From Squalus acanthias (taxonomy: Eukaryota): 64,000 bases of DNA. Below, one piece after another: positions 1 to 62,491 of this stretch; position 1 is the stretch's first letter; every line of letters begins with the position of its first letter. The translations under genes were made by a program, and so were the position numbers. Below the pieces are notes generated by a model that saw only the letters and a program-made list of their open reading frames with translations, was not told where the DNA came from and searched no databases. The stretch lies in the NCBI GenBank assembly GCA_030390025.1, contig JASTWF010000033.1:5768001-5832000 (forward strand), read 5' to 3'.

Positions 1-345
1 AATGGATATAATGGAATACTAGACACCATGATGGATAAATTTGTACCCGCCCCTAGGGCAGGATGAGACTGATAAGATTATGTATAAAAATGTAATTTAC
101 TAAGCTGTCGTTGGAGTCGGATCCAAGAGCGGTCTTGGAAGGTTCTCCCCAGGCCTGTGAATAAAGATCGTTTTGAACCATCACTCGAAGTCTGTCATCT
201 GTACTGAAGCTAAGCGTCGACCTTGTATATCACTTGGTCCGCTGATTGCTTACATCAATTGTCTAACTATCTGTAGAAAGTATATTCTTTACTGAAGCTA
301 AGCGTCGACCTTGTATATCACTTGGTCCGCTGATTGCTTACATCA
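1..345 (+). mobile_element. 3' part of a probable LTR with its terminal 56 bp duplicated
   Basis: TATAAAA at ~83, AATAAA at ~160, ends ...TTACATCA at 257; 202-257 is repeated exactly at 290-345. The 5' end lies outside the window. Confidence 0.5.
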
Positions 346-1327
346 CCCACGCACATACAGACACACTCACACAGACTCTGCAATTTGCAGAAACTAACAC
401 ACACACATTTATTTTAAAAGATTTGCAGCCTGGGACTGTGAATTTCTGATGATGTCCCTTCTTGGTTGTCCGGCCATGTTTGATGAGGACAATCAAACCG
501 GAAGAAGTGAACCGAGGCCCCAGATATCCAGGTCCCCGAGAGGAAATGAAGCCTGGGAGGTAGAAAAGAAGTAAATACAATCAGGAATACATAAAAATAT
601 ATATACTTTACTTTTGTTAACTAAATGTCTGCCTGTGTGTGGTTTGCCAGGAGTGTAATAAAATGAATGGAAAGATCCCACAGCAGTTTTTGCTCTGAAA
701 ACATCCCAAGCACATTCCCCAATAAAGCCCAGTCCAGAAAGAAATCAAATGGATTATTGTGAAAATAATTTTAAAAATATAATATAGATATATATTTTTA
801 AAAGATCTCGTCTTGTTTGGGTTGGGCTGAAGGTGAGAGTAAGATCCCAAAACAGGAAATGCCATGAAACAATCCACAAACATTCCCCTATAAAGTCCAG
901 ACCAGAAAAATATCAAATGGCTTAATGTATATATGTAGCCTTGCTTTTTACAAAATTCTTGAAAGAAAGGCAAAGTAAGATCCCAAAGCAGTGCAGTCTG
1001 GAATGAAATCAGTTTGATCTAATCAGTTTTTTTCAGACATGAGATGTAATGCAAACGGCAGATAACTTGAACACAGACAAGCCCTGCATACACAGCTTTT
1101 GCTGTCTGTCTCTCTCTCTCACAAACACACACACACAAGCCAGCCTGCAAAATTGCCACAAATCACTGTCAGCAATGAAAGAAAGTTGCTTTCTATCATT
1201 GCTCTGCTCAGTTTGGCAGTTTAAAAGCAAACAGACAGTTTTCAGTATTTTATCTTTTCAGTTTGCGGCCTACAGAAACAGGCTTTCTATTGTACCTCTA
1301 AAGCAAATGCTGTGGATGTGGAAATCT

Positions 1328-1545
1328 GAAATAAAATCAGAAAATGCTGGAAATACTCAGCAGGTAAGGCAGCATCTGTGGAGAGAGAGAAACAGAGTTA
1401 ATGTTTCAGCTCGATTACCTTTTGTCAGATTCTGGCAAGGTTCTGACGAAAGGTCATCGAGCTAAAACATTTACTCTGTTTCTCTGTATCTCCACTGATG
1501 CTGCCTAACATACTGAGTATTCCCAGCATTTTCTGTTTTCATTTC
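1328..1545. mobile_element. Inverted pair of Penelope-type terminal sequences (hairpin); partly deleted paralog at ~3095-3275
   Basis: The left arm AAAATCAGAAAATGCTGGAAATACTCAGCAGG...AACAGAGTTAATGTTTCAG is the reverse complement of the right arm ...TTACTCTGTTTCTCTG...GATGCTGCC...CTGAGTATTCCCAGCATTTTCTGTTTT. The same sequence terminates the Penelope fragments at ~7140-7250 and ~57735-57830. Confidence 0.75.
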
Positions 1546-2870
1546 TATTCTGCATGTTGTCTTGATTTCATGTGTCTCTCTCACTGCCTGCCTGCCTTGT
1601 CTTGATTTGAGTAGAGTGGAATGAAAATAATGCAAAGATCCCAGAGCAGCTTTTGTCAGACAGTCCACAAAGACATTTTTCAGTATCTCACTGACTGACT
1701 GATTGTCTTGAATTGAAGTGAAATTAAATAAAGTGATACACAACAGCATTACATGTGGACCAGGCCAGAATGAAATCAATAGGGTTTAATACAACAACAG
1801 CAGGTAATAAGGCAGCAGAACACATCTCACACAAACAGCAGCTTTTGCCCTCTCTCTCTCTCACACACACTCACAGCCTGGCCACCCTGCAGAGGGATGA
1901 CTGCCGTGTTGGAAGATTAAAACTAAAAAGACAGTTTTCAGTATCTTATCTTTACACTCTGTGGCCTACAGAAACAGGCTTTCTATTCTGCTACTTGTCT
2001 GTTGATTTCATGTCTCTCTCTCTCTCACTGACTCTCTGTCTGTCTCTCACTCACACAGTCTCCCTCCCACCCACATTGAACTAAAATTTACAGTAACATG
2101 ACACACACACTCAGACAGACTCTGAAATTTGCAAAAACAGAAACACATTTATTTTGAAAGGGTGCAGCCTGGGAGTGTCAGTTTTTGATGATGTCCCTTC
2201 CTGGCTGTGCGGCCATGTTTGATGAGGTCAATCAAACAGGAAGAAGTGAAGTCGAGGCCCAAGAAATCCGGGTCCCCGAGAGGAAATGAAAGCCCGGGAG
2301 GTAGAAAAGAAGTAAATACAATCAGGAATAAATAGTAATATATATATTTTACTTCTGTTAACTAATGTCTGCCTGTCTGTGGTTTGCCTGGAGTGTAATA
2401 AAATGAATGGAAAGATCGCACAGCAGCTTTTGCTCTGAAAACATCCCAAGCACATTCCCCAATAAAACCTAGTCCAGAAAAAAATCAAATGGATTATTCT
2501 GAAAATAATTTAAAAAATATAATATATACTTTTTCTTTAACAAACTTCTTGTCTTGTTTGAGTTGGACTGAAGGGGAGAGTAATATCCCACAGCAGGATG
2601 TGCCATGAAACACTCCACAAACATTCCCCAATAAAGTCCAGTCCAGAAAAATATCAAATGGATTGATGTATATATGGAAATTTGCTTTTTACTAAATTCT
2701 TGAAAGAAAGACAAAGTAAGATGCAACAACAGCGCAGTCTGGAATGAAATCAGTTTGTTCTAATGGAGTATACTTTATGTTTTCTTCAGACATAAGATGC
2801 AATACCAATGCACACGGCAGATAACTTGAACACAGACAAGCCCTGCATACACACCAGCTTTTGCTGCTTG

Positions 2871-2901
<31 letters not shown>

Positions 2902-3839
2902 GCCAGCATGCAAAATTGCCACAAATCACTGTCAGCAATGAAACAAAGTTGATTTCTATCATTGCTCTGCTCTGTTTGGCAGTTTAAAAGCAAACAGGCA
3001 GTTTTCAGTATTTTATCTTTTCAGTTTGCGGCCTACAGAAACAGGCTTTCTATTCTGCATCAAAAGCAAATGCTGTGGATGTGTGAAATCTGAAAGCAAA
3101 ACAGTAAATGCTGGAAATACTCAGCTGGTAAGGCAGCATCTGCGGAGAGAGAGAGAAACCGAGTCTGGCAAGGTTCTGACGAAAGGTCATCGAGCTGAAC
3201 TTTTACTCTGTTTATCTGTAGCTTAACTGATGCTGCCTAACCTACTGAGTATTTCCAGCATTTTCTGTTTTTATTTCTATTCTGCATGTTGTCTTGATTT
3301 CATGTGTCTCTCGCACTGCCTGCCTGCCTTGACTTGATTTGAGTAGAGTGGAATAAAAAGAATGCAAAGATCCCAGAGCAGCTTTTATTTTCAGACAGTC
3401 CACAAAGACATTTTTCAGTATCTCACTGACTGACTGTCTGTCTTGAAGTGAACTGAAATAAATTGCAATAAAGTGATACACAACAGCATTTCATGTGAAC
3501 CAGAATTAAATCAATAGAGTTTAATACAGCAACAGCAGGTAATAGGACAACAGACCACATCTCACACAAACACCAGCTATTGACCTCTCTCTCTCTCATG
3601 GACACACACTCATAGTCTAGCCAGCCTGCAGAGGGATGACTGCAGTGTTGGAAGAGTAAAACCAAAAAGACACTTTTCAATATCTTATAATTTCACATTG
3701 TGGCCTACAGAAACAGGCTTTCTACTCTGCTACTTGCCTGTTGATTTCATGTCTCTCTCACTCTCACTGACTCTGTGTCTGTCTCTCACTCACACAGACT
3801 CCCTCCTACCCACATTGAACTAAAATTTACAGTAACATG

Positions 3840-4045
3840 ACACACACACTCACACCGACTCTGCAATTTGCAGACACACAGACACCCACTCACTTACAGA
3901 CACACTCACACAGTCTCTGCAATTTGGAGACACACAGACACCCACTCACTTACAGACACACTCACACAGTCTCTGCAATTTGCAGACACACAGACAACCA
4001 TTCACTTACAGACACACTCACACAGTCTCTGCAATTTGCAGAAAC
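3840..4045. repeat. 56-bp minisatellite, ~3.6 copies
   Basis: CTCTGCAATTT starts at 3859, 3915, 3971 and 4027. Confidence 0.9.
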
Positions 4046-4794
4046 TCAACCTCACACACACACATCCATTTTGAAAGATGCGGAGCCTGGGAGTGTCAAT
4101 TTTTGATGATGTCCCTTCCTGGCTGTGTGGCCATGTTTGATGAGGACAATCCAACAGGAAGAAGTGAAGCCGAGGCCCAAGAAATCCGGGTCCCCGAGAG
4201 GAAATGAAAGCCCGGGAGGTAGAAAAGAAGTAAATACAATCAGGAATAAATAATAATATATATACTTTACTTCTGTTAACTAAATGTCTGCCTATCTGTG
4301 GTTTGCCTGGAGTGTAATAAAATGAATGGAAAGATCGCACAGCAGCTTTTGCTCTGAAAGCATCCCAAGCACATTCCCCAATAAAGCTCAGTCCAGAAAA
4401 AAATCAAATGGATTATTCTGAAAATAATTTTAAAAGTATAATATATACTTTTTTAAAAAACCAATGTCTTGTCTTGTTTGGGTTTGGCTGAAGGGGAGAG
4501 TAAGATCCCACAGCAGGATGTGCCATGAAACAATCCACAAACATTCCCCAATAAAGTCCAGTCCAGAAAAATATCAAATGGCTTGATGTATATGTGTAGA
4601 TTTGCTTTTTACAAAATTCTTCAAAGAAAGGCAAAGTAAGATCCCACCATAGCGTACTCTGGAATTAAAACAATATGATCTAATGGTATATACTTTCAGT
4701 TTTTTTCAGACATGAGATGAAATAGCAATGCACACGGCAGATAACTTGAACACAGACAAGTCCTGCATACACGCCAACTTTTGCTGTCTGTCCG

Positions 4795-4841
<47 letters not shown>

Positions 4842-5261
4842 GCTAGCCTGCAAAATTGCCACAAATCACTGTCAGCAATGAAATAAAGTTGATTTTCATC
4901 ATTGCTCTGCTATGTTTGGGAGTTTAAAAGCAAACAGACAGTTTTCAGTATTTTATTCTGCATGTTGTCTTGATTTCTCTCACTGCCTGCCAGCCTGCCT
5001 TGTCACATACAAACTCACAGCCTGGCCAGCCTGCAGAGGGATGACTGCCGAGTTGGAAGATTAAAACCAAAATGACATACAGACACACTCAGACAGACTC
5101 TGCAATTTGCAGAAACTGACACTCACTCTCACATACATTTTGAAAGGGGTGCAGCCTGGGAGCGGATGGGTCACGTGACCCTGTGGCTGGGCCTCTGACC
5201 TCACAATGGGTGATGACGCGATCAGCTCGAGCGGGAAACCCTTAAATTAAATTAAATTACA

Positions 5262-5352
5262 TCAATCAAGGGTCACTCTCAATCCGGGTCTTGTTCCCTG
5301 CAGCGCCCTCAGGAGTCTCTCTCCGTCTGAACTGAACCGATTGTTCCCCAGC
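5262..5352 (-). CDS. NLR-type (NLRP3/NLRC3-like) gene, terminal coding exon
   Basis: Acceptor tgtttcAG, phase 2. Reads LGNNRFSSDGERLLRALQGTRPGLRVTLD* with TGA at 5264-5262, in frame with the two preceding exons. Confidence 0.8.
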
Positions 5353-5520
5353 CTGAAACAGATTAAAGATTAAACAGGAAATAAACAGATTGAACATCAG
5401 TGTAATTAACCGCGAGACTGGGGTTAATAATTCAATAATAATTACAGACAAATAATACCACAGTGACTGAAACCCTTTGATATTTTATTTATTACATTAA
5501 ACATTAACACAAACACTCAC

Positions 5521-5688
5521 CCGATCCGCTCCAGACTCCGGCAGGTCAGTGTGAGGCGGCTGAGAGCGGGGACAGATCGGTCTGTGAAGGAGTTTAATGT
5601 CAGGTCCAGAACCGTCAGTGAGCGGTTTGCACTGAGAGCGGAGGCGAGATCCTCGGTACAAGAATCTGTGAGACCGACAACACATAGA
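5521..5688 (-). CDS. NLR-type gene, 168-bp ribonuclease-inhibitor-type LRR exon
   Basis: Acceptor gatccccAG, donor GTGAG, phase 2-2. Reads LCVVGLTDSCTEDLASALSANRSLTVLDLTLNSFTDRSVPALSRLTLTCRSLERIG (LxxLxLxxN LRR motif). Confidence 0.88.
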
Positions 5689-5826
5689 CTGGGGATCAGA
5701 GAGAAATAACAGAAATCAGAGTCAATCCCAGAGTTTATTAATAACACTATTACTGATACTAACAATAATGTTCAGTGTCAGACATCCAGTTATTATAAAC
5801 ACAATCTCACACAGTCTGGTACTTAC

Positions 5827-5913
5827 CCCAGTTTCTGTATTTTACAGTCCGGGTGCCTCAGAGCCTCAGACACTAGTTTCACTCCTGAATCTCTCAGTTT
5901 ATTGCCGCTCAGT
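5827..5913 (-). CDS. NLR-type gene, 87-bp LRR exon
   Basis: Polypyrimidine tract plus ttcAG acceptor, GTAAGT donor, phase 2-2. Reads LSGNKLRDSGVKLVSEALRHPDCKIQKLG, a typical fish NLR LRR (DSGVK...L..P.CK...L). Confidence 0.88.
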
Positions 5914-6054
5914 CTGAACACAAAAGGAGAGAGAAACAAACTGAATCAAAACCCGGATCTGATATAATTCCCTCTCTCGGATATTACAGCAATCACTGAA
6001 AGTACTTCAGGCCATTAATAACCCGGTTTCCCCCCGCGATTTCGCCCCTTGGCG

Positions 6055-6848
6055 AGTCGGGTGGGGTCGGGGGTGGGTCGGGTGGGGTCGGGGTCGGTGG
6101 ATGGTCGGGTGGGGTCGGGGCTGGTCGGGTGGGGTCGGTGGATGGTCGGGTGGGGCCGGTGGATGGTCGGGTGGGGCCGGTTGATGGTCGGGTGGGGTCG
6201 GGGTCGAGGGATGGTCGGGTGGGGTCGGTGTCGGTGGATGGTCGGGTGGGGCCGGGGTCGGGGGATGGTCGGGTGGGGTCGGTGGATGGTCGGGTGGGGT
6301 CGGGGTCGAGGGATGGTCGGGTGGGGTCGGTGGTTGGTCGGGTGGGGCCGGGGTCGGTGGATGGTCGGGTGGGGCCGGGGTCGGTGGATGGTCGGTGGAT
6401 GGTCGGGTGGGGCCGGGGTCGGTGGATGGTCGGGTAGGGTCGGGGTCGGTGGATGGTCGGGTGGGGTCGGGGTCGGTGGATGGTCGGGTGGGGCCGGGGT
6501 CGGTGGATGGTCGGGTGGGGCCGGTGTCGGTGGATGATCGGGTGGGTTCGGGGTCGGGGGATGGTCGGGTGGGGCCGGGGTCGGGTCGGGTGGGGCCGGG
6601 GTCGAGTCGGGTGGGGCCGGGGTCGGGGTTGGACCGGGGCGGGTCGGATCGGGAGTGGTCGGGGCCAGGCTGGGTGGGGCCGGGGTCGGTGGCGGGGTTG
6701 GACCGGGTCGGATCGGGTGGGGCCGGGGTCGGGTGGGGGCGGGTCGGGTCGGTGGCGGGTCAGGTGGGGTAAGGTCTGTGGTGGCTCGGGCGGGGTCGGG
6801 GTCGGTTGCGGGTGGGGTCGGGGTCGGGGCCGGGGTGGGGTCGGGTGT
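6055..6848. repeat. G-rich minisatellite with 27/21-bp units (GGGTGGGGCCGGGGTCGGTGGATGGTC)
   Basis: Read directly; it explains the 9-aa periodic Pro/Gly-rich ORFs in several frames. Confidence 0.93.
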
Positions 6849-7139
6849 CCCTCTGTCCGGTCTCGTTCCCTGATTATCAGAATTGCCCTCATGGAGCTCA
6901 GTGACCGGCCTTGTCATGTTTGGAGAAACTTGTCTCATTTCTGCTGCTCCTTAAATCCAGGATTTTCTGGGAATGGGGCTATTTTCCCAGAATTAAATGA
7001 TAAAGTGGTGATTCCCTGTACTTTACACTCTGTGCATTATATTAATCTGTAGAATATCTCGGGGTGAGTTATATTGTGAAACGCTAACTGCTGCTGTAAA
7101 ATCAGTCCCCCAGGATTTTATATAACACGGAGAATTTAT

Positions 7140-8435
7140 GATGAAATAAAAACAGGAAATGCTGGAAATACCCAGCAGGTCAGACAGCATCTATAGAGAG
7201 AGAAACAGAGTTAATGTTTCAGGTCGAGGACCCTTGGTCAGAACTGGAAAATGTTACAGATGTAACAGATTTTTAAGCAAGTGTCGGGGCCGTGAAAGGT
7301 GGGGGGAGCGGAGGAAAGAACAAAAGGGAAGGTCTGTGAGAGGGTGGAAGACAGGAGAGATTAAAAGACAAAAGGGATGATGGTGCAAGCAAAAGGAGCT
7401 GGTAATGGGACAAGTTAAGAAACAAAAGGTGAATCTAGATGAGGTGTGAATGGCAATGGCAAAGTCATCAACAGCTGTCATGCGAGGGAAAAACAATAAT
7501 GAAAAAAGTAAAATAGTGGCCGAGTTTATAGTCTGAAATTGTTAAACTCGATGTTGAGTCCAGAAGGCTGTAAATTGCCTAATTGAAAGATGAGGTGCTG
7601 TTCCTCGATCTAATGTTGTACTTTGTTGGAAGAGTGTAAGAGGCCGAGAATGGAGAGATCAGAGTGGGAGTGGAGCGGAGAATTCAAGCGATAGGTGACC
7701 AGAAGCTCGGGGTCACACTTACGGACTGAGCGGAGGTGTTCCGCAAAGCGGTCACCCATTCTGCGTTTGGTCTCCCCAATGTAGAGGAGATCGCATCGTG
7801 AGCAGCGAATACAGTATACTAAATTTCAGGAAGTACAAGTAAATCGATGTTTCACCTGCAAGGAGTGTGTGGGGCGACAGTGGGAAGGGAAGTGGTAAAA
7901 GGGCAGGTGTAGCATCTACTGCGCTTGCACGGGTAGGTGCCGTGGGAAGGGGAAGGGGTGTTGGGGGTGATCGAGGAGTGGACCAGGGTGTTGCGGAGGG
8001 AGCGGTCCCTACGGAATGCTGAAAGGTGAGGTGAGGGGAAAATGAGTTTGGTGGTGGGATCACGCTGGAGGTGGCGGAAATGGCGGAGGATGATCCGTTG
8101 AATGTGGAGGCTGGTGGGGTGAAAGGTGAGGACAAGAGGAACTCTATCGTGGTTCTGGGAGGGAGGGGAAGTGGTGAGAACAGAAGTTCGGGAAATAGAA
8201 CGGACACGGTCAAGAGCTGTGTCAGCCACGGTAGCGGGGAATCCTCGGATAAGGAATAAGGAAGACATGTCGGAATCACTAGAATGGAACGTGACATCAT
8301 CAGAACTGATGCGGCAGTGACGGAGAAACTGGGAGAATGGACCAGTGTCCTTACAGGAAGCGAGGTGGGAGGAAGTGTATTCCAGGTAGCTTTGGGAGTC
8401 AGAGGGCTTATAGTGAGTGTTTGTCAATAGCAGCA
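7140..8435 (-). mobile_element. Penelope-like retroelement, 3' fragment (RT C-terminus, GIY-YIG endonuclease, terminal repeat), decayed
   Basis: HYKPSDSQSYLEYTSSH...PFSQFLR (RT thumb region); NLVYCIRCSRCDLLYIGETKRRMGDRFAEHLRSV (GIY-YIG); frameshifts present. Confidence 0.85.
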
Positions 8436-9282
8436 ATAGAGTTTATTCTGTCCCGTTACAAGTTTTAAATGTCCCTGTGCTCCAAGTTTACAGGGGAGGG
8501 GAGTCTCTCACTTTATTCCCATTAAACTGGCTCTACATTTATTTCAGGTGTAACTGGCCCGAGAGGTTTTGGGGAATTTTCGGAAGTTACCTCCCCGAGC
8601 GAAGCCTCCCTCACACGGGGCGGATTATGGGGAATTCCCGGATTCACTGCCCCCGGTTTCCCCAGGAGCCGCCCGCTGTGTGCGAGGCCCCACCGCTGGC
8701 AGGTGTGTGTCTGTACTCCGGTTAGATTGGAACCTTTTCACCGGCAGGTTTAAGAACCTGAATATCAATCTTTACTCAATGTTCAGGACTGTGAATAATT
8801 GTAAACATTTACAGCTGAAAGAATTCCCGATTCCCCAATATTCCCAATCCAGGAAACTACCCCCTCGACAGGACACACCCTGTACGGTATTGGAGTAAAT
8901 ATCGAACTGTTAGTGATTTAAACTCGGGTTTCTTTCCTGTTCCCAGTTGAACTGGTGGATGTGGAAAACATTTTAAATTAATATTATCTTTACTGCCGGA
9001 TTATATTTTATGTTTACATTCTGCTGTCCAGCCTTATTAAATATGATTTATTGTAATTAAATTATCAGACTCTCAGTGACCTGTATTTGCTGATCCGATA
9101 AAGAATGTAGAATCCCTACTTGTTCACAAGGATCCGTTTTAGATTCTCCAGTCCTGAGGGAATTACTGACCGATCCTCTTATGATTGGTCATATTTGTGT
9201 TGAATCTGCTTCTCCCTGGTTTAACTGAACTGTTTGTTTCCCTGCATTACGGAGCGAAAACACAATCCGTGACTGTTCTACA

Positions 9283-9705
9283 ATTCATACTCATGTGACT
9301 CGGCCAACGTTGTCTACCTCATACGTTGCAGGAAAGGATGCCCCGGAGCATGGTACATCGGCGAGACCATGCAGACACTGCGACAACGTATGAACAGACA
9401 CCGCACAACAATCTCCAGGCATGAGTGTTCACTCCCAGTCGGGGAACACTTCAGCAGTCAAGGACATTCAGCCTCCGATCTTCAGGTACGTGTTCTCCAA
9501 GGCGGCCTTCGAGACACACGACAACGCAAAATCGTCGAGCAGAAACGGATAGCTAAGTTCGGCACCCATGAGGACGGCCTCAACCGGGATCTTGGGTTCA
9601 TGTCATGCTACATGACGTAGAGTCATCCAGACTCGAGTCGTCGTTGGCTTGTTCTCTCTACACGGATGCGGTCGGACCTGCTGTGATTTCAAGCAAAAAA
9701 AGTAT
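9283..9705 (+). mobile_element. Penelope-like element of a second family, GIY-YIG fragment and terminus
   Basis: YSCDSANVVYLIRCRKGCPGAWYIGETMQTLRQRMNRH...PVGEHFS...KFGTHEDGLNRD. Confidence 0.85.
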
Positions 9706-10407: not shown

Positions 10408-10480
10408 CGCCCGAACAGGGACTTGAACCCTGGACCCTCAGATTAAAAGTCTGATGCTCTACCGACTGAGCTATCCGGGC
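10408..10480 (-). tRNA. tRNA-Lys-TTT: tRNA-Lys, anticodon TTT
   Basis: GCCCGGATAGCTCAGTCGGTAGAGCATCAGACTTTTAATCTGAGGGTCCAGGGTTCAAGTCCCTGTTCGGGCG, the canonical vertebrate sequence; TTTT Pol III terminator 4 nt downstream. Confidence 0.98.
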
Positions 10481-12187: not shown

Positions 12188-12260
12188 CGCCCGAACAGGG
12201 ACTTGAACCCTGGACCCTCAGATTAAAAGTCTGATGCTCTACCGACTGAGCTATCCGGGC
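12188..12260 (-). tRNA. tRNA-Lys-TTT: tRNA-Lys, anticodon TTT (identical copy)
   Basis: Identical 73-nt sequence and TTTT terminator. Confidence 0.98.
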
Positions 12261-49800: not shown

Positions 49801-49984
49801 AGACTTTTAAACATATATTTAGAATTCGCATTGTTAAACTGTTCAAACAATCATGCGCAATCAGTTCTTGTTAGCCTGGTAACGACCTCTTGGTGTCTGG
49901 CAAGTGAAATCCCATGCACTGTGATTTTGTGGGAACACGAGATTACAGGACTTTGGACCAGAGAGGCGGTGGATGGGTCTGGCT

Positions 49985-51402: not shown

Positions 51403-51829
51403 TCCATCGACACAAATTCCTCACTTTAATTGTTTAAATAAATGGCCACAGTTAAGGCGGACAGCCCCATCCCAGTGTGCAGCAGAGCAGCCCTGAGCGC
51501 ACATCCTAACATTTGGAATTTAATTACTGAATGGCCACAGCAGAGTGAAAGACATCACCGAAACAATGTGAGATCTAGAGATGGGCCTGGTGGTGTTTGA
51601 AACAACAACCCAATTCCTGGGAGAATACAGCTGGCAATGTTCATTAGTTAATTCATGTGATCAGAAATTTCCGGTCTTTGGGGTTTTCAATTTCAATCTC
51701 AGCACTAAATATATTCCATCACTGCAGGGAATTAACTCGGCTGTCGTCATCTGTTTTTAAAATGTTTTTTTTTTAACAGTATTTTCAGCGATGTTGCTAC
51801 CTCACTGTCCTCGTGGAGATCCCGCAGGG

Positions 51830-51840
51830 TATATATGAAA
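51830..51840 (+). promoter_or_regulatory. Candidate TATA box of the GPCR gene
   Basis: TATATATGAAA ~90 bp upstream of the exon 1 ATG, with GC-rich flanks. Confidence 0.45.
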
Positions 51841-51921: not shown

Positions 51922-51988
51922 ATGCATCGACCAATTCAACATATGGAGAAAATATGCTGCATGATCATTGCCGTCATTGGTGTTCCTG
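51922..51988 (+). CDS. GPR139-like: GPR139/GPR142-like class A GPCR, coding exon 1 (N-terminus and first half of TM1)
   Basis: ATG...MHRPIQHMEKICCMIIAVIGVP plus G, then donor GTAAGT at 51989. Phase 1 matches the acceptor at 61511 and gives GVPVNLLAIVIL. Confidence 0.85.
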
Positions 51989-52291
51989 GTAAGTGATTAT
52001 AACCATTGAAGTTGTGTAAATCTGTGTGTGAGCTGGCCTCTGGTCTGGCTCTGTGACTGATAATGTTACATCCTGATCTAGTGGTCACCGTTACACAGAC
52101 ACCCGATCAGTGATAACATTTCGGTTAGTGTAATGTCGTAAATTACTTCTGAAGTTTTATTCCATTGCCTCAACTGAAAGTAAAATTCTGTTTGTAACTC
52201 ACAGGCTCGCTGTGTTATGAAGTTATTGCTTTTAGTGAAATATTGTGTACTTTTTAATCAGACCTCAGCAAAATCAACCCTGTGAGAGTAG

Positions 52292-52607
52292 GTATTAGTG
52301 GAAGGGACTGTCACTGTAGAACGACTGAGTGTGGGTGACCAACTGGGGTGGAACACCTCATCCCAGTGGCCATGTATAACTGGGATTGCCTGTCTTGTAG
52401 AATTGTACTGAGTGTGGGTCACTAACTGCAGGGGAACACCTCACCCCAGCGGCCATGTATTACTGGGAATATCTGTCACTGTAGAACGGTACTGAGTGTG
52501 GGTCACCAACTGCAGTGGAACACCTCACCCCAGCGGCCATGTATTACTGGGAATATCTGTCACTGCAGAACTGTCCTGCGTGTGGGTCACTAAACCGAGT
52601 GGAACAA
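52292..52607. repeat. 82-84-bp tandem repeat, ~3.7 copies, in the GPCR intron
   Basis: TGTCACTGTAGAAC-like starts at 52309, 52391, 52474 and 52558. Confidence 0.9.
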
Positions 52608-52746
52608 GTCGGTTCGAATTTGAAATTATTATTTGAGATAATTGATCTCTCCCCTTCATGGAGCTGCATTCGTGTTTTCTCAATGTAACCAACGGCAAAG
52701 GGGATGATTTTTGCTGTTGGTTGAAAACGTTTGGTTATAAGCATAT

Positions 52747-53236
52747 GAGGCGCTGCAGCGAAGGTTCACCACATTGATTCCTGGGATGTGAGGGCTGTCC
52801 TATGATGAGAGATTGTGTAGAATGGTCCTATACTCTCTGCAGTTTAGAAGAATGAGAGGTGATCTCATTGAAACATACAAGATTCTGTAGGGGATTGCCA
52901 GGGTTAGATGCTGAGAGGTTGTTTCCCCTGGCTGAAGTGTCCAGAACTGGGTGGCATAGTCTCAGGATAAGGGGAAGTCCTTTTCAGACTGAGATTAGAA
53001 GGATATTCTTCACTTAGAGGGTTGTGAATCTTTGGAATTCTCTGCCCCAGAGGCCTGTGAAAGTATATTCAAGACTGAGATAGATAGATTTTTGGACTCT
53101 AGCGGAATCAAGGGTTATAGAGATCGGGCAGGAAAGGGCTATTGAGGTCGATGATCAGCCATGATCTTATTGATTGGCGGAGCTGGTTCGAGGGGCCGTA
53201 TGGCCTACTCCTGCTCCGATTTCTTATGTTCTTATG
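52747..53236 (+). mobile_element. CR1 LINE 3' end
   Basis: QRRFTTLIPGM...FRRMRGDLIETYKIL remnants; (TTCTTATG)n tail. Confidence 0.9.
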
Positions 53237-53844
53237 CTCATATATAAGGTGAAATGTATTGATAATGCCTTGTTTCCTATTGAACTGCACCAACAGAAAC
53301 AGATCTTAACTAATTACTGACAAGTTAGCAGCAGGAGAGCAGTGTTACGATATTCAAATCCTCTGTATAATGATGTATTCTTATTTTATGTATAGTTATT
53401 GTAAACAATTTAATTGTTTTGGTGCTGATTTATCCACTTCCCGCAACACGGCCCTGAGAATCTGTGGGTCATGAGTGCTGAATTTCATTATGTTACCGTT
53501 AGACGGGATGAATATTGGGCTGTGGTCATTGATTATTGCACTGCTGTAACTGATTAAGGTGTGAAGAACCAGTTCTTATCTCTGATTCAGAGTCTCTACC
53601 TGCAACGAGCTCTGGCCTTAGCTCAGTGAGGTGAGTCCCTGCGAGGAGGGACACGCATAACTGATCGAACACGCTTATCAGGTTTTCATAATACACAGAT
53701 CAGTCCCGGGGGCAGTAAATAGTTGCATTAATGCATTGATAATGATCAAATAAATAGTGCAATGCTTCAATAACTAACACACTTCAATGATTAAATGAAC
53801 TGATCAATGTGATTAATTTGTACTCAAGTTACGGAGAACTCCTT

Positions 53845-55068
53845 AGAATTTACAGCACAAAACAGGCCATTCGGCCACACTAGGTTATACCAGTGTTTAT
53901 GCTCCACAGGAGCCTCCTCCCATCCCTCTTCATCTCACCCGATCAGCATAACCTTCTACTGATTTCCATCTCGTGTACTTCTCTAGCTTCCCCTTAAATG
54001 CATCTCTGCTATTCGCGTCAAGTACTCCAAGTTGTAGCGAGTTCCACATTCTAACCAATCTCTGAGTAAAGAAATTTCGCCTCAATTCCGTATTGGATTT
54101 ATTAGTGACTCTCTTTTATCGATAATTCCAATTTTGCACTCACGTCTCAAGTATAAACATCTACCCTATGTTACCCCTTCAAAATTTAAAGGCCTCTATT
54201 CGGCCACCCCTCTGCCTTCGCTTTTGTAAAGAAAGGAGACCCAGCCTGTTCAATCATTCCTGATGGTTATAACGTCTCAGTTCTGGTGTCATCCTTGTAA
54301 GAAAAATTGCACTTTATCCTGTGTCTTAATATCCTTTATGTAATATGGAGATCAGAACTGCACACAGTACACTCAGTGTGGTATAACCAAGGTTCGATAT
54401 AACTTTAAGCTAACCTCTTTGCTTAACGATTCTATTCTTCTAGAAATGAACCCCAGTGCTTTGTTTCCATGTTTATGGCCCTGTTACCATGCGTTGCTAC
54501 TTTAAATGATTTATTAATGGGTACCCTTCTACCCCATTCCCGCTCTGATTTTCCAAGGAGTATTTGGGAACGTTTTTCTTCTTACCAAAATGCTATACCT
54601 CTCACTTAGCTATACTGAAATTAATTTGCCATTTAAACGCCCTTTCTGCAAGTTTATTAATGTCTTCAGTTATTGTGTTGCATTCTTCCTCTGCATGAAC
54701 TCTATTCCCAATTTGGATTCATCTGCAAATTTTGAATTTGTGCTTCTGCTTCCTGAATCAATATCATTTATGTAAATGATGAACAACAGTGGTCCCAACG
54801 CCGATCCTTGTGGAACATCACTTCTCACCATCCAGCTAGCTGAGTAAATAGCTTTATCCACTACTCCCTATTTTCTGTTCTTGCAGCCATCTTGCTATCC
54901 ATTCTGCTGCTTGCCTCCTAACTCCACCTGCTCTGTGATTCAGTCTGCTATGTGGTACCTTATCGAATGGCTTTAAAAAATCAAAATATATTACATCTAT
55001 TACATTAACCTTACCTAATCTTTCTGGCACTTATTCAAAGAATTCACTAAGGTTACTCAAGCAAGACA
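53845..55068 (-). mobile_element. Old CR1 LINE fragment
   Basis: [21 protein letters not shown]...KFADESKLG. Confidence 0.85.
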
Positions 55069-55810
55069 TTCCAAAGGGTGTGCAGGAACAGATGGACCCG
55101 GGGGTACATGTACAAAATCGATGAAGGTGGCAGGGCAGGTTGAGAAAGCGGTTAAAACTGCTTACGGGAATCTGAGCTTTATACATAGAGGAATAGAATA
55201 CAAAAGCGAGGAAGTTATGATAAACATTTATAAAACATTGGTTAAGCCACAACTGGAGTATTGTGTCCAATTCTGGGCATCGCACTTTAAGAGGGGGATG
55301 AAGGCTTTAGAGAGGGTGCAAAAAAGATTCACAAGAATGGTTCCAGGGATGAGGGACTTCAGTTATGTAGATATACTAGAGAAGCTGGGGTTGTTCTCAT
55401 TAGAGCAGAGAAGATTGAGAGGAGATTTGATAGAGGTGATCAAAATCATGAGGGGTCGAGACAGTGTAGACAGAGTAGATAGAGAGAAGATGTTTCCATT
55501 GGTGGAACGGTCGAGAAACAGAGGATACAGGTTTTAGGTGATGTGCTGAAGATCCAAAGGCGACATGATGAAAATCTTTTTAAGGCAGTGAGTGGTTATG
55601 ATCTGGAATGCACTGTTTGAAAGGGTGGTGGAGGCAGATCCAATCGTGGCTTTCAAAAGAGAATGGGATATGTACCTGAAGGAAAATAATTGCAGGGCTA
55701 TGGCGAAAGGGCGAGGGATTGGAATTAGCTGCAGTGCATGTGCAGAGAGTGAGCTCGGGATCGACGGGCCCGGATGGCCTCCTTCTGTGCTGTAACCATT
55801 CTATGATTCC
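55069..55810 (+). mobile_element. CR1 LINE 3' end
   Basis: KTLVKPQLEYCVQFW...ALERVQKRFTRMVPG...RRLRGDLIEV; TTCTATGATTC tail. Confidence 0.9.
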
Positions 55811-56029
55811 CTTTTGGAATACCTGCTGAATACTCGTTATTATATTTTTGCTTCTAGATGTTTTTCTGTTACATTTTTGAGTAAGGATTCCATTATATTT
55901 CCTCGCATCGACGTTATGCTAACTGGTCCGTAGATCTTTGGAATTGCTCTGTGTTCCATTTTAAATACAGGAATGACATGTAAATGGTGCTCATGAGTAC
56001 CACATCATGTAAATGGTGAACCGCAGTGG

Positions 56030-57830
56030 TCTTCCCATCACTTCCTCGACTTCACGATCTTCATTTCAGGGGCTAGGACGTCCACCAATATCTACTATAA
56101 TCCCACCAACTCCCACAGGAAACTTGAGTAGACTTCCTCCCACCCAGCTTCCTGGACGGGCTCTATTCTATTCTCAAAGTTTCTCCGCCACCGTTGCATA
56201 CGTTCTGACGATGCCACCTTGCACACCAGTGCTTCCGAAATCTCTTCATATTTTCTCAGCCGAGTATTCACCTCCATTGTGATTGACAGGGCCCTTGACC
56301 GTGTCAATCCTACATTGCTCCCGTCACCACTTGCCCTCCCGGCTGGAACCCAGATAGGGTTTCCTTTGTCCTCAGCTTCCAGTGCACCAGCCTTCACATT
56401 CAACTGATTATCCTCTGCCATTTCCGTCATGTCCAGCTAAGGCCACCAACAAACATATCATCCACTGACCTCCCATCCCCCGGCTCTCGCAACACCCTGA
56501 CCACTCTTCCGTCACCCCTAACATCTGCTCCCCTTCCCTGGCACCTTCCTATGCAAGTGCAGGAGATGCAACGGCCGCGATTTCCCCCTTTTCCATCCCA
56601 AGAGCCAGGGCCCCAAACAGTCCATCCACGTGAAAGACTAATTTACTTGTACTTCTTCCAATTCAGTATATCGTATTCGCTGCCCACGATCCAGTCTCCT
56701 GTACATTGGGTGGACTAAACGCAGATTGAGTAATTGCTTCGCTGAACGCCTCCGTTCAGTCCGCAAGTGTGATCCTGAGCTTCAGGTCACTTGCCACTTT
56801 AATTCTACATCCCACTCCCACTCTGAACTCACTGTTCTCGGCATCCTGCACTGTTCCCCTTTTAAACTCAATGAGGAACAGCACCGTATTTTTCGGTTAG
56901 GCAGTGTATTGCCTTCCGGACACAACACTAAGTATAAAAACTTCAGATCATAACCTCCGCTCCCGTTTTCTCGAACGACATGCGCTGCAATGGAAGATGG
57001 CTCCACAGAGCCACTGGGAGTGGAGGAGCTGGGGGCTGGGGTTTTGTGGTGTCCAACCCGGTACACCGCTAGCGGACTGGTCCAAACACCTGGGGTCTAC
57101 CAAGCTTTTTTTTAAAATTCGTTCTTGGAATGTGGGCGTCGCTGGCAAGGCCGACATTTATTGCCCATCCCTAATTACCCTCGAGAAGGTGGGCTATTTC
57201 AGAGGGCAGTTAAGATTCAATCGCATTGCTGTGGGTTTGGAGACACATATAGGCCAGACCGATTATGGACGGCAGATTTCCTTCCTCTAAAGGGCATTAG
57301 TGAACCAGATGAGTTTTTACGACAATCCGCCAGTTTTATTGTCACCATTACTAATACTAGTTTTTAAATTCCAGATTTTTTTAACTGAATTTAAATTCCA
57401 CAACTGCTTGTGGTGGGATTTGAACTCACGTCTCGTATTATTAGTCTAAGGCGCTGGATTACTAATCTAGTAACATAGCCACTAAATACCGTACCCGCAT
57501 CTCTGCCACATGTGCCCTACTACCCCTCACCCTTGTTATTCTGCTGTAACCATTTACACCTCCTCTAGACCCATCTTCTGTTTCTTTAATTGTCCCATTC
57601 GCCTTGCACCACCATCCCTTGTGTCATTGAATCACTCCTGCCCTCCAGCCAATCACAGACTTTGTTCTTTCCTTATGCAACCGCACTTTTCTCTGACTCT
57701 ATCATTGCTGTAATACTATTAATCTCTGATATCTTCCAGTTCTGATGAAAGGTCATCGACCTCAAATGTTAACTCTGTTTCTATCTGCAAAGATGCTGCC
57801 TGACCCGCTGAGTGTTTTCAGCATTGTTTT
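56030..57830 (+). mobile_element. Decayed Penelope-like element (RT C-terminus, GIY-YIG, terminus), interrupted by a SINE
   Basis: Homologous to 7140-8435: YSQSF...SASEISSYF; SVYRIRCPR.SLLYIGWTKRRLSNCFAERLRSV; terminal motif at 57736-57830. Confidence 0.8.
57105..57498 (-). mobile_element. tRNA-derived SINE with a LINE-derived tail
   Basis: Minus strand has an A-box-like TATTTAGTGG and a B-box GAGTTCAAATCCC. The 3' ~85 bp match the end of the LINE at 46177-46260. Confidence 0.8.
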
Positions 57831-57844
57831 TCTTAATTAAATTA

Positions 57845-60577
57845 AAGCTACTATTAAGTCAAAGGAGGAAGCTTATAAAGTTGCCAGAAAAAGCGGTCAG
57901 CCTGAGTAATGGGATCTTTTTAGAAATCAGCTAAGGGGAACCAAGAAATTGATAAAGAAAGGGGAAATGGAATACGAGCACAAACTAGCGAAAATTATAT
58001 AAACGGATTGTTAAAGCTTCTATAGGTATGTGAAACATAGAAACATATAAGATAGGACCAGGAGCAGGCCATTCGGCCCCTATAGCCTGCTCCGCCATTC
58101 AATGCGATCATGACTGATCATCCAAATTCAGAACCCTGTCTCTGCTTTCTCCCCATATCCCTTGATCCCTTTGGCCTTAAGAAATATATCCAACTCCTTC
58201 TTGAATCTATTTAATTAATTGGCCTCTACTGCCTTCTGTGGTAGAGAATTCCACATGTTCACCACTCTCTGGGTAAATAAATTCCTCCTCATTTCTGTCT
58301 AAAATGGCTTACCGCTTATCCTTAGACTGTGACCACTGGCTCTGGACTCTCCGACCATCGGGAACATCCTTCCTGCATCTAGTCTGTCCACGCCTGTCAG
58401 AATGTTATAACTTTCAATGAGATCCCCTCTCATTCCTCTAAACTCCAGCGAGTATAAGCCCAATCGACCCAATCTCTCATCATACGTCATTCCGGCCATC
58501 CCAGGTATCAGCTTGGTGAATCTTCGCTGAACTCCTTGCATGGCACGAACATCCTTCCTGAGATAAGGCGACCAAAACTGAACACAATACTCAAGATGTG
58601 GTCTCACCAAGGCGCTGTACAACTGCAGCAAGACATCCTTGTTCCTGTACTCAAACCCTCCCGCTACGAAGGCCAACATACCATTTGCCTTCTCAACCGC
58701 CTGCTGCACCTGCATGCTTACCTTCAGCGACTGGTGCACAAGGACACCCAGGTCTCGTTGCACTAGCGAAGGTAAATGTAGATCCGTTACAGTCAGAGAC
58801 GGGAGAATTTATAATGTGAATGAGGAAATGACAGAAAAATTAAAGAAATACTTTGTTTCTGTCTTCACGGAGGAAGACACAAAAAACCTCCTAGAAATAC
58901 GAGAAAACCAAGTGTGTCGCGAGAATGAGGAACTTAAAGAAATTATTATTACTAAAAAAACAGGACTAGCAAAATTAATGAGACAGAAAGTTGATAAATC
59001 TCAAGGACAGGATGACCTACATCCTAGAGTTTTGAAAGAGGTGGCCATTGGGATAGTGGACGCATTGGCTGTCATCTTCCAAAATTCTATAGATTCTGGA
59101 ACGGTTCCTGCAGATTGGAGGAGAGCAAATGTAACCCTGCTCTTTAAGAAAGGAGGGAGAGAGAAATCGGGGAACTACAGACCTGTTAGTCTCGCATCAG
59201 TAGTTGCGAAAATGCTGGAATCTATTATAAAGGATGCAATAACTGGGCACTTAGAAACTAATAGTAAGATTGGGCAGAGTTAACATGTATTTATTAAATG
59301 GAAGTCCTTTTTGACAAACTTATTGGATTTCTTTGAGGATGTAACTAGTGGAGTAGAAAAAGGGGAACTGGTAGATGTGGTGTATTTCGATTTTCAGACG
59401 CCCTTCGATCAGGTCCCACACAAGGGGCTGATGAACAAAATTACGGCACATGGACTTAGGGTAATATACTAGCATGGATTGATAATTGGTTAACAGACAG
59501 AAAACAAAGAGTAGGGATACACGGGTCTTTTTCAGGATGGCAGGCTGTGACTAATGGGGTAACGCAAGGATCGGTGCTTGGGCCTCAGCTATTCACAATC
59601 TATATCAATGATTTGGATGAGGGGACTTAATGTAACATTTCCAAATTTGCTGATGACACAAATTTCGGTGGCAGTGCCAGTTGCGAAATGGATGTGAAGA
59701 GGCTTCAAGGGGATCTCGAGAGGCTCAGTGAGTGGGCGAGATCATGGCAGATGGAATATAATGTGGATAAGTGTGAAGTTATCCAATTTGGTAGAAAAAA
59801 CAGAAAGGCAGTATATTTCCTAAATGGTGAAAGATTGGGGAATGCAGATGCTCAAAGGGGGCTGGATGTCCTTGTACATGATTTACTGAAAGTGAATTTG
59901 CAGGTGCAGCAAGCCATTAGAAAGGCAAATTGTATGCTGGTCGTCATTACAAGAGGATTTGACTACCGGAGTAAAGAAGTCTTACTCCAATTATGTAGGG
60001 TCTTCGTGATGCCACACCTGGATTACTGTGTACAATTTTGGTCTCCTTACCTAAGGAAGAATATACTTGCCACAGAGGAAGTGCAATGAAGGTTCATGAG
60101 ATTGATTCCTGGGATGGCGGGGCTGTCGTATGAGAAGAGATTGAGTAAACTAGGCCTGTATTCTATTGAATTCAGAAGAAAGAGAAGGGATCTCATTGAA
60201 GCATACAAAATTATTGCAGGGCTTGATAGGGTGGATACTGGGAGAATGATTCCCTTGGCTGGGGAGTCTAGAACCAGGGGCCACAGCCTCAGGATAAAGG
60301 GTAGGCCATTCAGGACTAAGATGAGAAGACATTTCTTCAAACAGAGGGTGGTGAATCTTTGCAATTCTCTACCCCAGAGGGCTATGGAGGCTCAGTCATT
60401 GGGTATATTCAAAACAGAAGTCGATAGATTTCTGACTGGTAAGGGCATCAAGGGATATGGCAATTGGGCCGGTGAATGGAATTGAGGCAGAAGATCAGCC
60501 GTAATCTCATTGAATGGCAGAGCTGGCTCGAAGGGCCGAACGGCCTACTCCTGCTCTGATTACTTATGTTCTTATGC
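57845..60577 (+). mobile_element. CR1 LINE, 5'-truncated and decayed, with a nested CR1
   Basis: KYFVSVFTEED; DLHPRVLKEVA; GNYRPVSLASVV; KFADDTNF; (TTCTTATG) tail. Confidence 0.92.
58034..58762 (-). mobile_element. Nested CR1 3' fragment, same subfamily as 21136-22881 and 26713-31235
   Basis: QRDLGVLVHQSLKVSMQVQQAV...RPHLEYCVQFWSPYLRKD; AACATAG tail at 58034. Confidence 0.92.
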
Positions 60578-60627
60578 TCTTAACCGATTTACAGCAGCCT
60601 CAGTATTTTGCATTTGGTCATATACTT

Positions 60628-61437
60628 CCGCCTGGATATCAACAGAGGCGGGTTATGTACGATGGCCGGTTGGTACGGGGTTAATACAGAATATCAGACA
60701 GGATACCTGGAAGTCCAGGTATTCCCGGACGTTGGCGTGTCTTAACTCCACAGCGTACGTCATTTGTCTTTGACTGGTTCACCACCCCGGAGGTCAGCCT
60801 GATTGACAGTCGGGCTGCCAGTCAGACAGGGTGGGGGGTCTCCGGAGCAGGACCAGGTAGATCCGATGGACGAAACTGGGTTGGATGGGGCGTTTTAACC
60901 GGTACCGGGAGTGTGACTGGTCCCGGGGGTTTGACTGGTCCCGGGGGTGTGACTGTTCCCGGGGGATTTGACTGGTCCCGGGGCTTTGACCGGTCCCGGG
61001 GGTTTGACCGGTCCCGGGGGGTTTGACCGGTCCCGGGGGGGTTTGACCGGTCCCGGGGGTTCGACCGCTCCCGGGTGTTTGTCCAATCCCCAGTCTTTGG
61101 GATGTCCGAACCCGACCCCTTGATGCTATCCTTGGGGTGCTCGGGCAGTGGGTAGAGCTTGCGGGGTGGGGCTGACATCATTCCCGAGGCCCAGGAAGCC
61201 CGGCCAGTCGTAGTTAAACCTGTGAACTGGTTAAATCAGAGGCTGCCCGCCTCATTGAAATATTTAACTTGCCAACTCGCCTCCATGGAGCGGTTTGCTG
61301 CCCGCCCCCCTGTCCCGTCTCCGTTAAACTCGGAAGCGGGCGGGTTGGAGGCGGGTTGGGTTCGGGAGAATATTGTTAAATTTTCACCTCTGACCCGACC
61401 CCAACCCGCCGGTTTTTGTGATGTTAAAATCCAGCCC
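60628..61437. mobile_element. Probable non-autonomous DNA transposon (MITE-like) with an internal 17-19-bp minisatellite
   Basis: Imperfect terminal inverted repeats GCCTGGATATCAAC...GCGGGTT and AACCCGC...GTTAAAATCCAGCCC; GGGGGTTTGACCGGTCCC repeats at ~60895-61080. Confidence 0.55.
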
Positions 61438-61511
61438 TTACTGTCTGGGCTCAGACACGGAGAATGTGTGATCAGTAATTTCCAGTCTCTTTTCACTTCT
61501 GTGTTTTACAG

Positions 61512-62491
61512 TGAATTTGCTGGCGATTGTGATCCTGTCCCGGGGAAAGTGCGGGCTCTCCACCTGCACCACTCGCTACCTGGTGGGCATGGCAGCGGCG
61601 GATCTCCTGGCCATTGTCACTGAGGTCATACTGAGGAGGATCAGAATGTATTATTTCCCATGGTCTTTCCTTGGCCTCACCCCTATGTGTAGTGTTCTCG
61701 TTGTCCTGTCCTGTGTAGCCACAGACTGTTCTGTCTGGTTCACCGTCACTTTCACCTTTGATCGATTTGTGGCCATTTGTTGCCAGAAGCTGAAAACTAA
61801 ATATTGCACCGAGAAAACAGCAGCTGTGGTTCTGGCAACAACCGGCATTCTGCTCTGTTTAAAAAACGTTCCATTCTACTTTATATATAAACCCAGGAGG
61901 ATAATCGACAATGTGCCGTGGTTCTGTGCCGCAATCCCGAGCTTTCGTACTGAGCCCGGGTGGGTGGGATTTGACTGGCTTAATACGGTTTTAACCCCAT
62001 TGCTCCCATTCGCTTTAATTCTGTTGCTCAACGCTCTGACAGTCAGACACATTTTTGTGGCCAGTCGGGTCCGTAAGGGACTGAGGGGTGAGAGCAAGGG
62101 AGAGAATGGCAGAGACCCAGAGATGGAGAGCAGAAGGAAGTCTGTGATTTTACTCTTCACCATATCCGGCAGCTTCATACTGCTGTGGCTGGTATCTGTT
62201 TTAGTTTTCTTATATTCAACCATTACAGGAACCATTTATTACACTGATTCATTATTTAACTTTCAACGAGTCGGATTTATGCTGCGGAATTTAAGTTGCT
62301 GCACAAACACATTTATTTATGGGGTGACCCAGTCCAAGTTCAGAGAGCAGGTGAAGAGGGCGGTGAAATATCCGCTTACCACAATTATTCAATTCATTAA
62401 TAATCAGAAACAACTAAGTGCAGCCCAAAGGCGGATCCCAGTGCTTCCAGGCCAGGAATGTAAAATTCAGCCCCAGACTGCCATCCACTGA
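61512..62491 (+). CDS. GPR139-like: GPR139/GPR142-like class A GPCR, coding exon 2 (TM1 second half to stop; spliced protein 348 aa)
   Basis: Acceptor gtgttttacAG after a pyrimidine tract; uninterrupted ORF with 7 hydrophobic segments; N1.50, MAAADLL (D2.50), C3.25, SVWFTVTFTFDRFVAIC, LPF..ILLLN, CCTNTFIY. Family assignment by motif recognition; not necessarily the GPR139 orthologue. Confidence 0.9.

Follow-up and report, generated by a model that had tools for sequence, protein, structure and literature searches.

A 64,000-nucleotide stretch of the Squalus acanthias genome (GenBank assembly GCA_030390025.1, contig JASTWF010000033.1, positions 5,768,001 to 5,832,000 of the forward strand; this whole stretch is called the window, and positions are counted from its first letter) carries an intact two-exon gene for a GPCR (G-protein coupled receptor) at 51922 to 62491. 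Taken singly, the gene is an ordinary member of its family; the finding is the family itself, whose copies in this genome number roughly 2,700 and whose database names, which refer to one brain receptor, are misleading. The reading proposed here, with a probability of about 0.5, is that the family is a chemosensory repertoire of which the window gene is one intact copy. A literature search, with limited coverage of subscription papers, found no paper describing this expansion, and the accessible portions of four shark genome papers (PMC10620051, PMC13100897, PMC8455134, PMC11979771) contain no word beginning with "GPR" (papers are cited by PMC number throughout).

Size and distribution of the receptor family

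Searching the 3.71-Gb genome at the protein level turned up 4,730 first-look candidates, and all 130 of those scored matched at 81% identity or more. A tight 29-base pattern from transmembrane helix 3 (TM3) has 1,101 exact matches in the genome, and a looser TM3 pattern, allowing at most one mismatch, has 2,760; the reversed control gave none in either case. A strict pattern covering exon 1 and its splice donor has 979 matches (control 0). Listed family matches form arrays on contigs C1, C3, C6, C7, C18 and C21, with further copies on C26, C29, C30 and many small contigs. The first-pass annotation had suggested a lineage-expanded, functionally uncharacterised family with "many" paralogues; the pattern matches, the separate GPR139 and GPR142 genes and the phylogenetic tests described below bear this out, and the size of the expansion goes far beyond that suggestion. 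Its description of the gene as isolated, on the other hand, applies only inside the 64-kb window. The 6.7-Mb contig that contains it has at least 21 listed family copies, of which the nearest is 236 kb off, and in the 20 kb to each side of the window no family exon and no NACHT exon was found.

Intactness was sampled at 80 of about 170 distinct listed places, these being perfect TM3-pattern matches on the large contigs C1-C21, with exon 2 inspected. All 80 loci proved to be family members, with exon 2 open in 41 and broken in 39. Provided that the sample represents the unplaced contigs and the one-mismatch matches, this extrapolates to about 1,100-1,730 copies with an open exon 2 genome-wide. 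Inflation of the copy count by retained haplotype duplicates looks modest on placed contigs, because only seven pairs among 87 coding sequences are as close as 9 differences or fewer over 870 bases, the sole identical pair lying on one contig; unplaced contigs, which hold equal-scoring family copies, may add more.

Among public proteins, 2,585 clusters match the family, and the best 120 of these are from elasmobranchs wherever an organism is named; across sharks and rays the proteins mostly bear the automatic name "probable G-protein coupled receptor 139". Holocephalans were absent from the named matches, no search aimed at them having been made. For odorant receptors in this genome, the Pfam profile 7tm_4 gives three matches at E<=1e-20 among 128 candidates scored.

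Two arrays show local peculiarities. At C1:98.9-99.7 Mb (L162-L172, L071-L076), about 22 same-strand, near-identical copies lie head to tail, with exon 2 open in five of six sampled and with repeat-like proximal upstream DNA that lacks the family promoter module. At C7:147.99-148.35 Mb, several copies carry the exon-1/donor pattern twice, 101 bp apart, which suggests that the first exon may have been tandemly duplicated or that an alternative donor may be present.

Structure of the window gene

The start codon lies at 51922. Coding exon 1 (51922..51988, forward strand; 67 bp, 22 codons plus one base) encodes the short N-terminus and the first half of TM1, and has equivalents in the paralogues. 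It is followed by a phase-1 GT..AG intron of 9,523 bp inside TM1 (51989..61511, forward strand), filled with fragments resembling long interspersed nuclear elements (LINEs) and two short tandem arrays, and by coding exon 2 (61512..62491, forward strand), which supplies the rest of TM1 through TM7, helix 8 and the C-terminal tail of a class A GPCR. Joined and translated on the forward strand, the exons give an unbroken product of 348 amino acids. About 10 residues precede TM1, and the sole N-x-S/T sequon, N282, falls within TM7, so that none is extracellular; in all these respects the gene model first drawn from the sequence holds. A 26-codon C-terminal extension (62411..62488, forward strand) runs past the stop codon of other paralogues; among 28 intact close paralogues, the window copy counted, the long form occurs in 16 and the short form in 12.

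By seven-helix fold and domain profile the product is a class A (rhodopsin-like) GPCR. A Pfam scan finds only 7tm_1 (E 6e-22, 78.8 bits against a cut-off of 30.5), and an AlphaFold2 model of the exon 2 part has a mean predicted local distance difference test score (pLDDT) of 92.7, seven helices and a hairpin in extracellular loop 2 (ECL2). The solved-structure relative closest in sequence is human GPR139, a weak match (E 1.6e-7; PDB 7vug, 9m42). Odorant receptors are of the 7tm_4 type and intronless, whereas the window protein is 7tm_1 only and its gene has a coding intron in TM1; membership of the window gene among the odorant receptors is ruled out on both counts.

Descent from the GPR139-related group

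A GPR139 motif pattern has one match in the genome, at C18:26.7 Mb, and among the top matches of the gene there, GPR139 of elasmobranchs, tetrapods and the coelacanth is 86-96% identical to it. GPR142 is a separate single gene at C24:7.9 Mb (57% identity). Family copies are about 26-33% identical to these two genes, and in a search with GPR139 the matches that follow GPR142 are mostly family copies. At 11 of 12 loci compared, comprising this genome's GPR139, related genes on C17, C9 and C12 and family copies, the splice acceptor lies 2 nt before the N1.50 codon (at the twelfth the script found no N1.50 match), and from this common position the intron is taken to be ancestral. Intron position and mutual best similarity together place the family within a wider GPR139-related group that includes GPR139, GPR142 and the GPR210-type orphans.

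A tree of 63 proteins, 36 of them from the expanded family and five more distant ones serving as outgroup, unites the 36 in a single group (92/81) whose sister is a salamander gene (100/99). Next to this amphibian sister branch a C17 clade with coelacanth and teleosts, then a C9 clade and an amphioxus protein (96/90, 100/97 and 98/90 for the coelacanth/teleost clades and the amphioxus protein), and GPR139 plus GPR142 stand apart (100/100). Approximately unbiased (AU) tests on a 27-row subset rejected grouping of the family with GPR139 (p 1.5e-5) and with GPR139 plus GPR142 (p 3.6e-4). Orthology of the family to GPR139 or GPR142 is ruled out by the separate single genes, the tree and the AU tests, and the phylogeny that the first-pass annotation had recommended thus shows that the window gene is not the single-copy GPR139/142 orthologue. 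The lineage of the family appears to have split from GPR139/142 before the amphioxus relative branched off.

Twenty amphibian clusters, with 66-100% identity, represent the amphibian sister gene, each named species having a single 90% cluster. The gene is present in Xenopus tropicalis (P0411) and in a sturgeon, and is likewise auto-named GPR139. This sister and the coelacanth and teleost orphans are low-copy and conserved, in contrast to the elasmobranch branch with its thousands of copies and variable pocket. The window's own subfamily holds both ray and shark members (100/100) and is therefore old. GPR210A/B sets in fishes and the coelacanth have been named beside GPR139/142 (PMC6504862), and the coelacanth/teleost clades of the tree may be those same sets.

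Among the related loci, C17:37.41 Mb (L044) and C9:120.53 Mb (L045) each hold a GPR139-related orphan in single copy, with coelacanth or teleost orthologues, and the public relatives of both are all auto-named GPR139. At C12:90.76-90.86 Mb (L047, L048, L052), away from the large arrays, a four-gene cluster represents an early-branching member of the family with a shorter ECL2, and is a candidate for the ancestral locus.

Conserved motifs and the predicted binding pocket

The window protein reads DRF at 106-108, FILLWLV with V250 at position 6.50 and NTFIY at 288-292, motifs that had been singled out at first as non-canonical. They are present as described, but are not special to this gene, being either family-wide or common with GPR139. 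In an alignment that includes 62 expanded-family and 9 GPR139/GPR142 proteins, F3.51 is found in 57 of the 62 family members and T7.50 in 60, and P6.50 is kept in four. D2.50, R3.50, P5.50, W6.48, N7.49 and Y7.53 are all present in the window protein and each occurs in at least 60 of the 62; F6.44 is likewise kept in the family, and P6.50 and P7.50 are missing from the window protein. GPR139 and GPR142 also lack P7.50 (F in 9/9) and have Asn 5.58, W6.48 and, in GPR139, the phase-1 intron before N1.50 in common with the family, from which they differ in being single genes, in having no C3.25-ECL2 cysteine pair (conserved in the family) and in the family's general lack of P6.50. Loss of P6.50 is also seen in two of three C17/C9-type proteins. 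The motif set is thus largely inherited and compatible with signalling, the P6.50 loss alone being derived; the notion that these changes mark a dead or unique receptor is rejected by the family-wide census.

GPR139 and GPR142 are class A orphans activated by L-Trp and L-Phe, and for GPR139 this activation needs F3x33, H5x43, W6x48 and N7x38 (PMC5430874). The corresponding residues of the window protein are C90, N180, W248 and F278, of which one (W6x48) is kept. With three of the four residues different and a lineage that appears to have separated early, the label "GPR139-like" given in the first description of the gene finds no support as a guide to its ligand. D3.37 is conserved in 52 of 62 family proteins (36 of the 42 sampled from this genome), and residue 5.39 is acidic in 47 of 62 (34 of the 42); because these two positions are conserved, the ligands are predicted to be polar or cationic (amines, short basic peptides) rather than Trp or Phe.

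An alternative is that the receptors respond to a diversified set of peptides, endogenous or social, such as neuropeptides, pheromones or gamete signals. The best Foldseek matches of the exon 2 model are peptide-type class A receptors (template modelling score about 0.7), neighbours in the ESM Atlas include FMRFamide-receptor-like clusters, and the GPR139 group is kin to invertebrate FMRFamide, MIP and proctolin receptors (PMC12208981). No matching expanded peptide family turned up, no search aimed at one having been made, and the alternative is regarded as quite improbable. More than 1,000 receptors would far exceed the number known to serve endocrine signalling in vertebrates, which also counts against it.

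Selection on the two halves of the receptor

Selection was analysed in a close set of 27 distinct close paralogues from the window gene's subfamily, divided into an extracellular half of 117 codons and an intracellular half of 172 (289 in total). The ratio of non-synonymous to synonymous rates (omega) is 1.60 for the extracellular half (differing from 1 at p 0.0006) and 0.57 for the intracellular half (p 0.001). Site models favour M2a over M1a (2dlnL, twice the log-likelihood difference, 228), and 20 of 23 sites with a posterior above 0.9 lie in the extracellular half (Fisher p 2e-6), the selected sites including pocket positions 2.61, 2.65, 3.29, 3.33, 5.42, 6.51, 6.54, 7.35 and 7.42. With a tree for each segment, omega was 1.73, 1.37 and 2.16 outside versus 0.25, 0.98, 0.34 and 0.75 inside, and a simple recombination test was negative (p 0.22). 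In a broader set of 42 copies omega was 0.70 outside versus 0.34 inside. In the comparison of the window gene with 14 close paralogues, inner non-synonymous divergence is about half of the flank rate. Purifying selection on the inner half is firm, and positive selection on the outer half, concentrated at some sites, is well supported; the diversification of extracellular parts that the first-pass annotation had proposed to look for by dN/dS is accordingly found.

Promoter and transcripts

Upstream of the start codon, a footprint at 51752..51837 (forward strand) could be aligned across 10 divergent family promoters. It contains, all on the forward strand, a forkhead-like box at 51752-51762 (near -165; degenerate in the window copy), a degenerate EBF/O-E-like site at 51808-51817 (near -115) and a TATA box at 51830-51837 (near -92); the forkhead and EBF/O-E labels are consensus names that we presume to apply, and the sites are putative. 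The forkhead-like box is found in 8 of the 10 aligned promoters, in 18 of 37 upstream regions (those that could be anchored, from 42 exon-1 loci) and in 4 of the 6 closest paralogues of the window copy. When seven motifs were tried against shuffles, one of them, a loose EBF/O-E-like motif, gave 26 matches upstream versus a shuffle mean of 9.3 (p 0.01). O/E sites are typical of the promoters of mouse odorant-receptor genes (PMC5318403).

Transcripts were sought among contigs of runs that are guessed rather than recorded to be RNA, from other organisms and lacking tissue labels, with the exons compared separately; such contigs cannot show transcription, strand or level of the window copy. Among the matches listed, paralogue-like exon-1 ends join at the exon 2 acceptor in two of four runs (X6 and X11, probable RNA from two studies), and one contig (X13) leaves exon 1 exactly at 51988. 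The junction between exon 1 and exon 2 is therefore used by paralogues, as seen with paralogue ends only, in probable RNA. A 217-base contig of run X11, with a depth of 1,252, matches 51535-51620, about 300-390 bp upstream of the start codon, and may come from a repeat, from a promoter region collapsed out of many copies or from a small transcript.

A proposed chemosensory repertoire and the evidence weighed

With its short N-terminus, its compact gene and its arrays spread over many chromosomes, the family is reminiscent of chemoreceptor families. In form it resembles the OR, TAAR, V1R/ORA and V2R/OlfC repertoires in its multi-chromosome arrays, in having about half of its copies as pseudogenes, and in combining a variable outer pocket with a conserved inner face, and its estimated open-frame count is of the same order as the 1,948 odorant receptors of the elephant (PMC11979771). 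It is thus large, of the birth-and-death kind and pocket-diversifying, as a chemoreceptor repertoire would be, a finding tempered by the pairwise flank comparison given below. Chemosensing is favoured because the known chemoreceptor sets of sharks are small, with about 65 chemosensory receptor genes in a catshark (PMC6368271; see also PMC11979771), and because lophotrochozoan class A expansions with variable pockets have been interpreted as chemosensory (PMC11886862); cartilaginous fishes are also described as relatively poor in GPCRs (PMC8455134). The copy number, the open exon 2 frames, the contrast in selection between the two halves, the age of the window's subfamily, the spliced exon ends in probable RNA and the conserved promoter footprint with its weak EBF/O-E-like site are counted on the same side. 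Like the shark family, such invertebrate expansions are large, come from neuropeptide-receptor-like stock and have variable pockets. The shark family is an independent vertebrate event and several times larger than, for example, the set of about 450 FMRFamide-receptor-like genes of Lymnaea (PMC11589774).

On this chemosensory reading, every copy would recognise an external ligand of its own by means of its variable outer pocket, and the conserved inner face would carry the signal to the G protein. Activation would be that of an ordinary class A receptor, given the retention of D2.50, R3.50, P5.50, F6.44, W6.48, N7.49 and Y7.53, and loss of P6.50 would stiffen TM6. Segmental duplication would have spread the copies along with NLR genes and satellites, and the copies would have turned over by birth and death. 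The further proposal that sharks and rays possess another major chemoreceptor family of GPR139-related origin, with more than 1,000 working genes per genome and one or a few expressed per sensory cell, is made tentatively, as a possibility less likely than not.

Several observations weigh against chemosensing. Exon 2 is broken in about half of the sampled copies. The window copy itself has a broken forkhead-like box and a Cys at residue 13 in TM1, where all six close paralogues have Tyr, and from these two changes it may be a weakened copy. The strict EBF core and a homeodomain motif are not enriched upstream (p 0.11 and 0.50), and EBF is active also in B cells. The TATA-type promoter module of the family was not found within 1.5 kb upstream of this genome's odorant-receptor genes (0/3), so that a module common to both is ruled out over that distance. 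Several contigs are unspliced, reading through either the intron/exon 2 or the exon 1/intron boundary, and in a catshark brain-plus-olfactory library the 50 most specific genes include no GPCR (PMC11979771). As to selection, the site test was our own implementation with relative branch lengths fixed, and the synonymous rate is higher outside than inside (0.85 vs 0.51 per site), which hints at gene conversion, able to inflate site tests. Against the 14 close paralogues, outer non-synonymous divergence of the window gene exceeds that of both non-coding flanks in five and is mostly close to flank divergence, so that relaxed constraint accounts for part of the signal; relaxed constraint and gene conversion may both contribute to it.

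The same observations bear on the view that the high copy number came about mostly as a side effect of segmental duplication in regions rich in satellites and LINEs, with most copies redundant or silent and a few keeping, like the amphibian gene, a conserved ancestral function. The 39 broken copies among the 80 sampled and the near-neutral outer-half divergence in pairwise tests are what this view would predict; the 3' flanks of family copies are co-duplicated as well, at 90-99% identity over 0.5-1.4 kb, and in 11 of 11 copies of one C1 array the family promoter has, within 230 bp of the start codon, given way to unrelated DNA. Against it stand the purifying selection on the inner half in both sets of copies and the excess in the outer half, the subfamilies common to sharks and rays, the many matching protein clusters, with elasmobranchs at their head, and a promoter footprint kept across divergent subfamilies. 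It is judged unlikely.

NLR genes and other features near the receptor

The 3' (LRR-exon-type) part of an expanded NLR gene lies at 338..9287 on the reverse strand of the window, as found by blastn against two expanded NLR loci, to whose 3' part it is about 80-91% identical over kilobases. It contains repeated modules with 84-bp LRR-type exons, and its homology to the intact loci ends about 30 bp beyond the end of their NACHT exon; no NACHT exon was found in the window by tblastn with the NACHT exons of those two loci. These features suggest a truncated segmental duplicate. A tblastn search with three top-scoring NACHT exons had shown no NLR relic in the window, and it was expanded-type NLR loci as queries that revealed it. 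The relics of NLR and tRNA genes noted at first near the receptor are thus upheld for the NLR part; for the tRNA part, ARAGORN found two tRNA-Lys(TTT) genes on the reverse strand (10407-10480 and 12187-12260). The two lie 1,780 bp apart and apparently arose by tandem duplication, since near-identical LINE-like fragments follow each of them (10407-13900).

The co-clustering of family and NLR genes that was raised in the first-pass annotation is seen on C7, C29 and C2561, besides the NLR tail in the window. Two family-rich contigs, C29 and C7, account for 15 and 14 of the 95 listed NACHT matches, and a listed family copy is also present on 16 of the 52 small contigs with a listed NACHT match, both lists being partial. 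The overlap compares with 1.9 expected if all contigs are equal, but with 14.5 (p 0.36) if there is room for either gene on only about 500 large contigs. The co-location is real at the regional scale, and is no demonstration of common function.

It is here that an immune reading is to be considered. On this view leukocytes or mucosal cells would carry the family as a repertoire for innate immunity or barrier sensing, and its members, in the manner of formyl-peptide or Mas-related receptors, would sense microbial or damage-derived peptides. Interleaving of family copies with expanded NLR genes fits such a role, the strong selection on the pocket fits an arms race, and the disulfide pair and ECL2 hairpin are like those of peptide receptors. 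The excess of shared contigs, however, is gone under the large-contig null, the common location may only reflect duplication-prone chromatin, and NF-kB-, ETS- and interferon-stimulated response element (ISRE)-like motifs are not enriched upstream (p 0.44, 0.84 and 0.25), by which immune promoter motifs are rejected. This reading is held to be rather doubtful.

The window also holds long satellites. A long AT-rich satellite of 54 bp (3 x 18) extends over 15606-36732, with LINE-like fragments interrupting it, and is also present in NLR loci L036 and L038. An 18-bp tandem array of about 79 copies at 49984-51401 ends about 520 bp upstream of the receptor start codon, and gives long open frames by chance.

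Significance

If the family does comprise more than 1,000 working chemoreceptors, it would be among the largest vertebrate receptor repertoires, and the view of cartilaginous fishes as animals that smell with just a few dozen receptors would be overturned. A sensory role would explain how chemical space is covered in sharks, of which so few receptors are known, and an immune role would mean a new innate receptor repertoire alongside the NLR expansion. For the ancestral function of the family, the low-copy sister gene in Xenopus tropicalis offers a laboratory handle.

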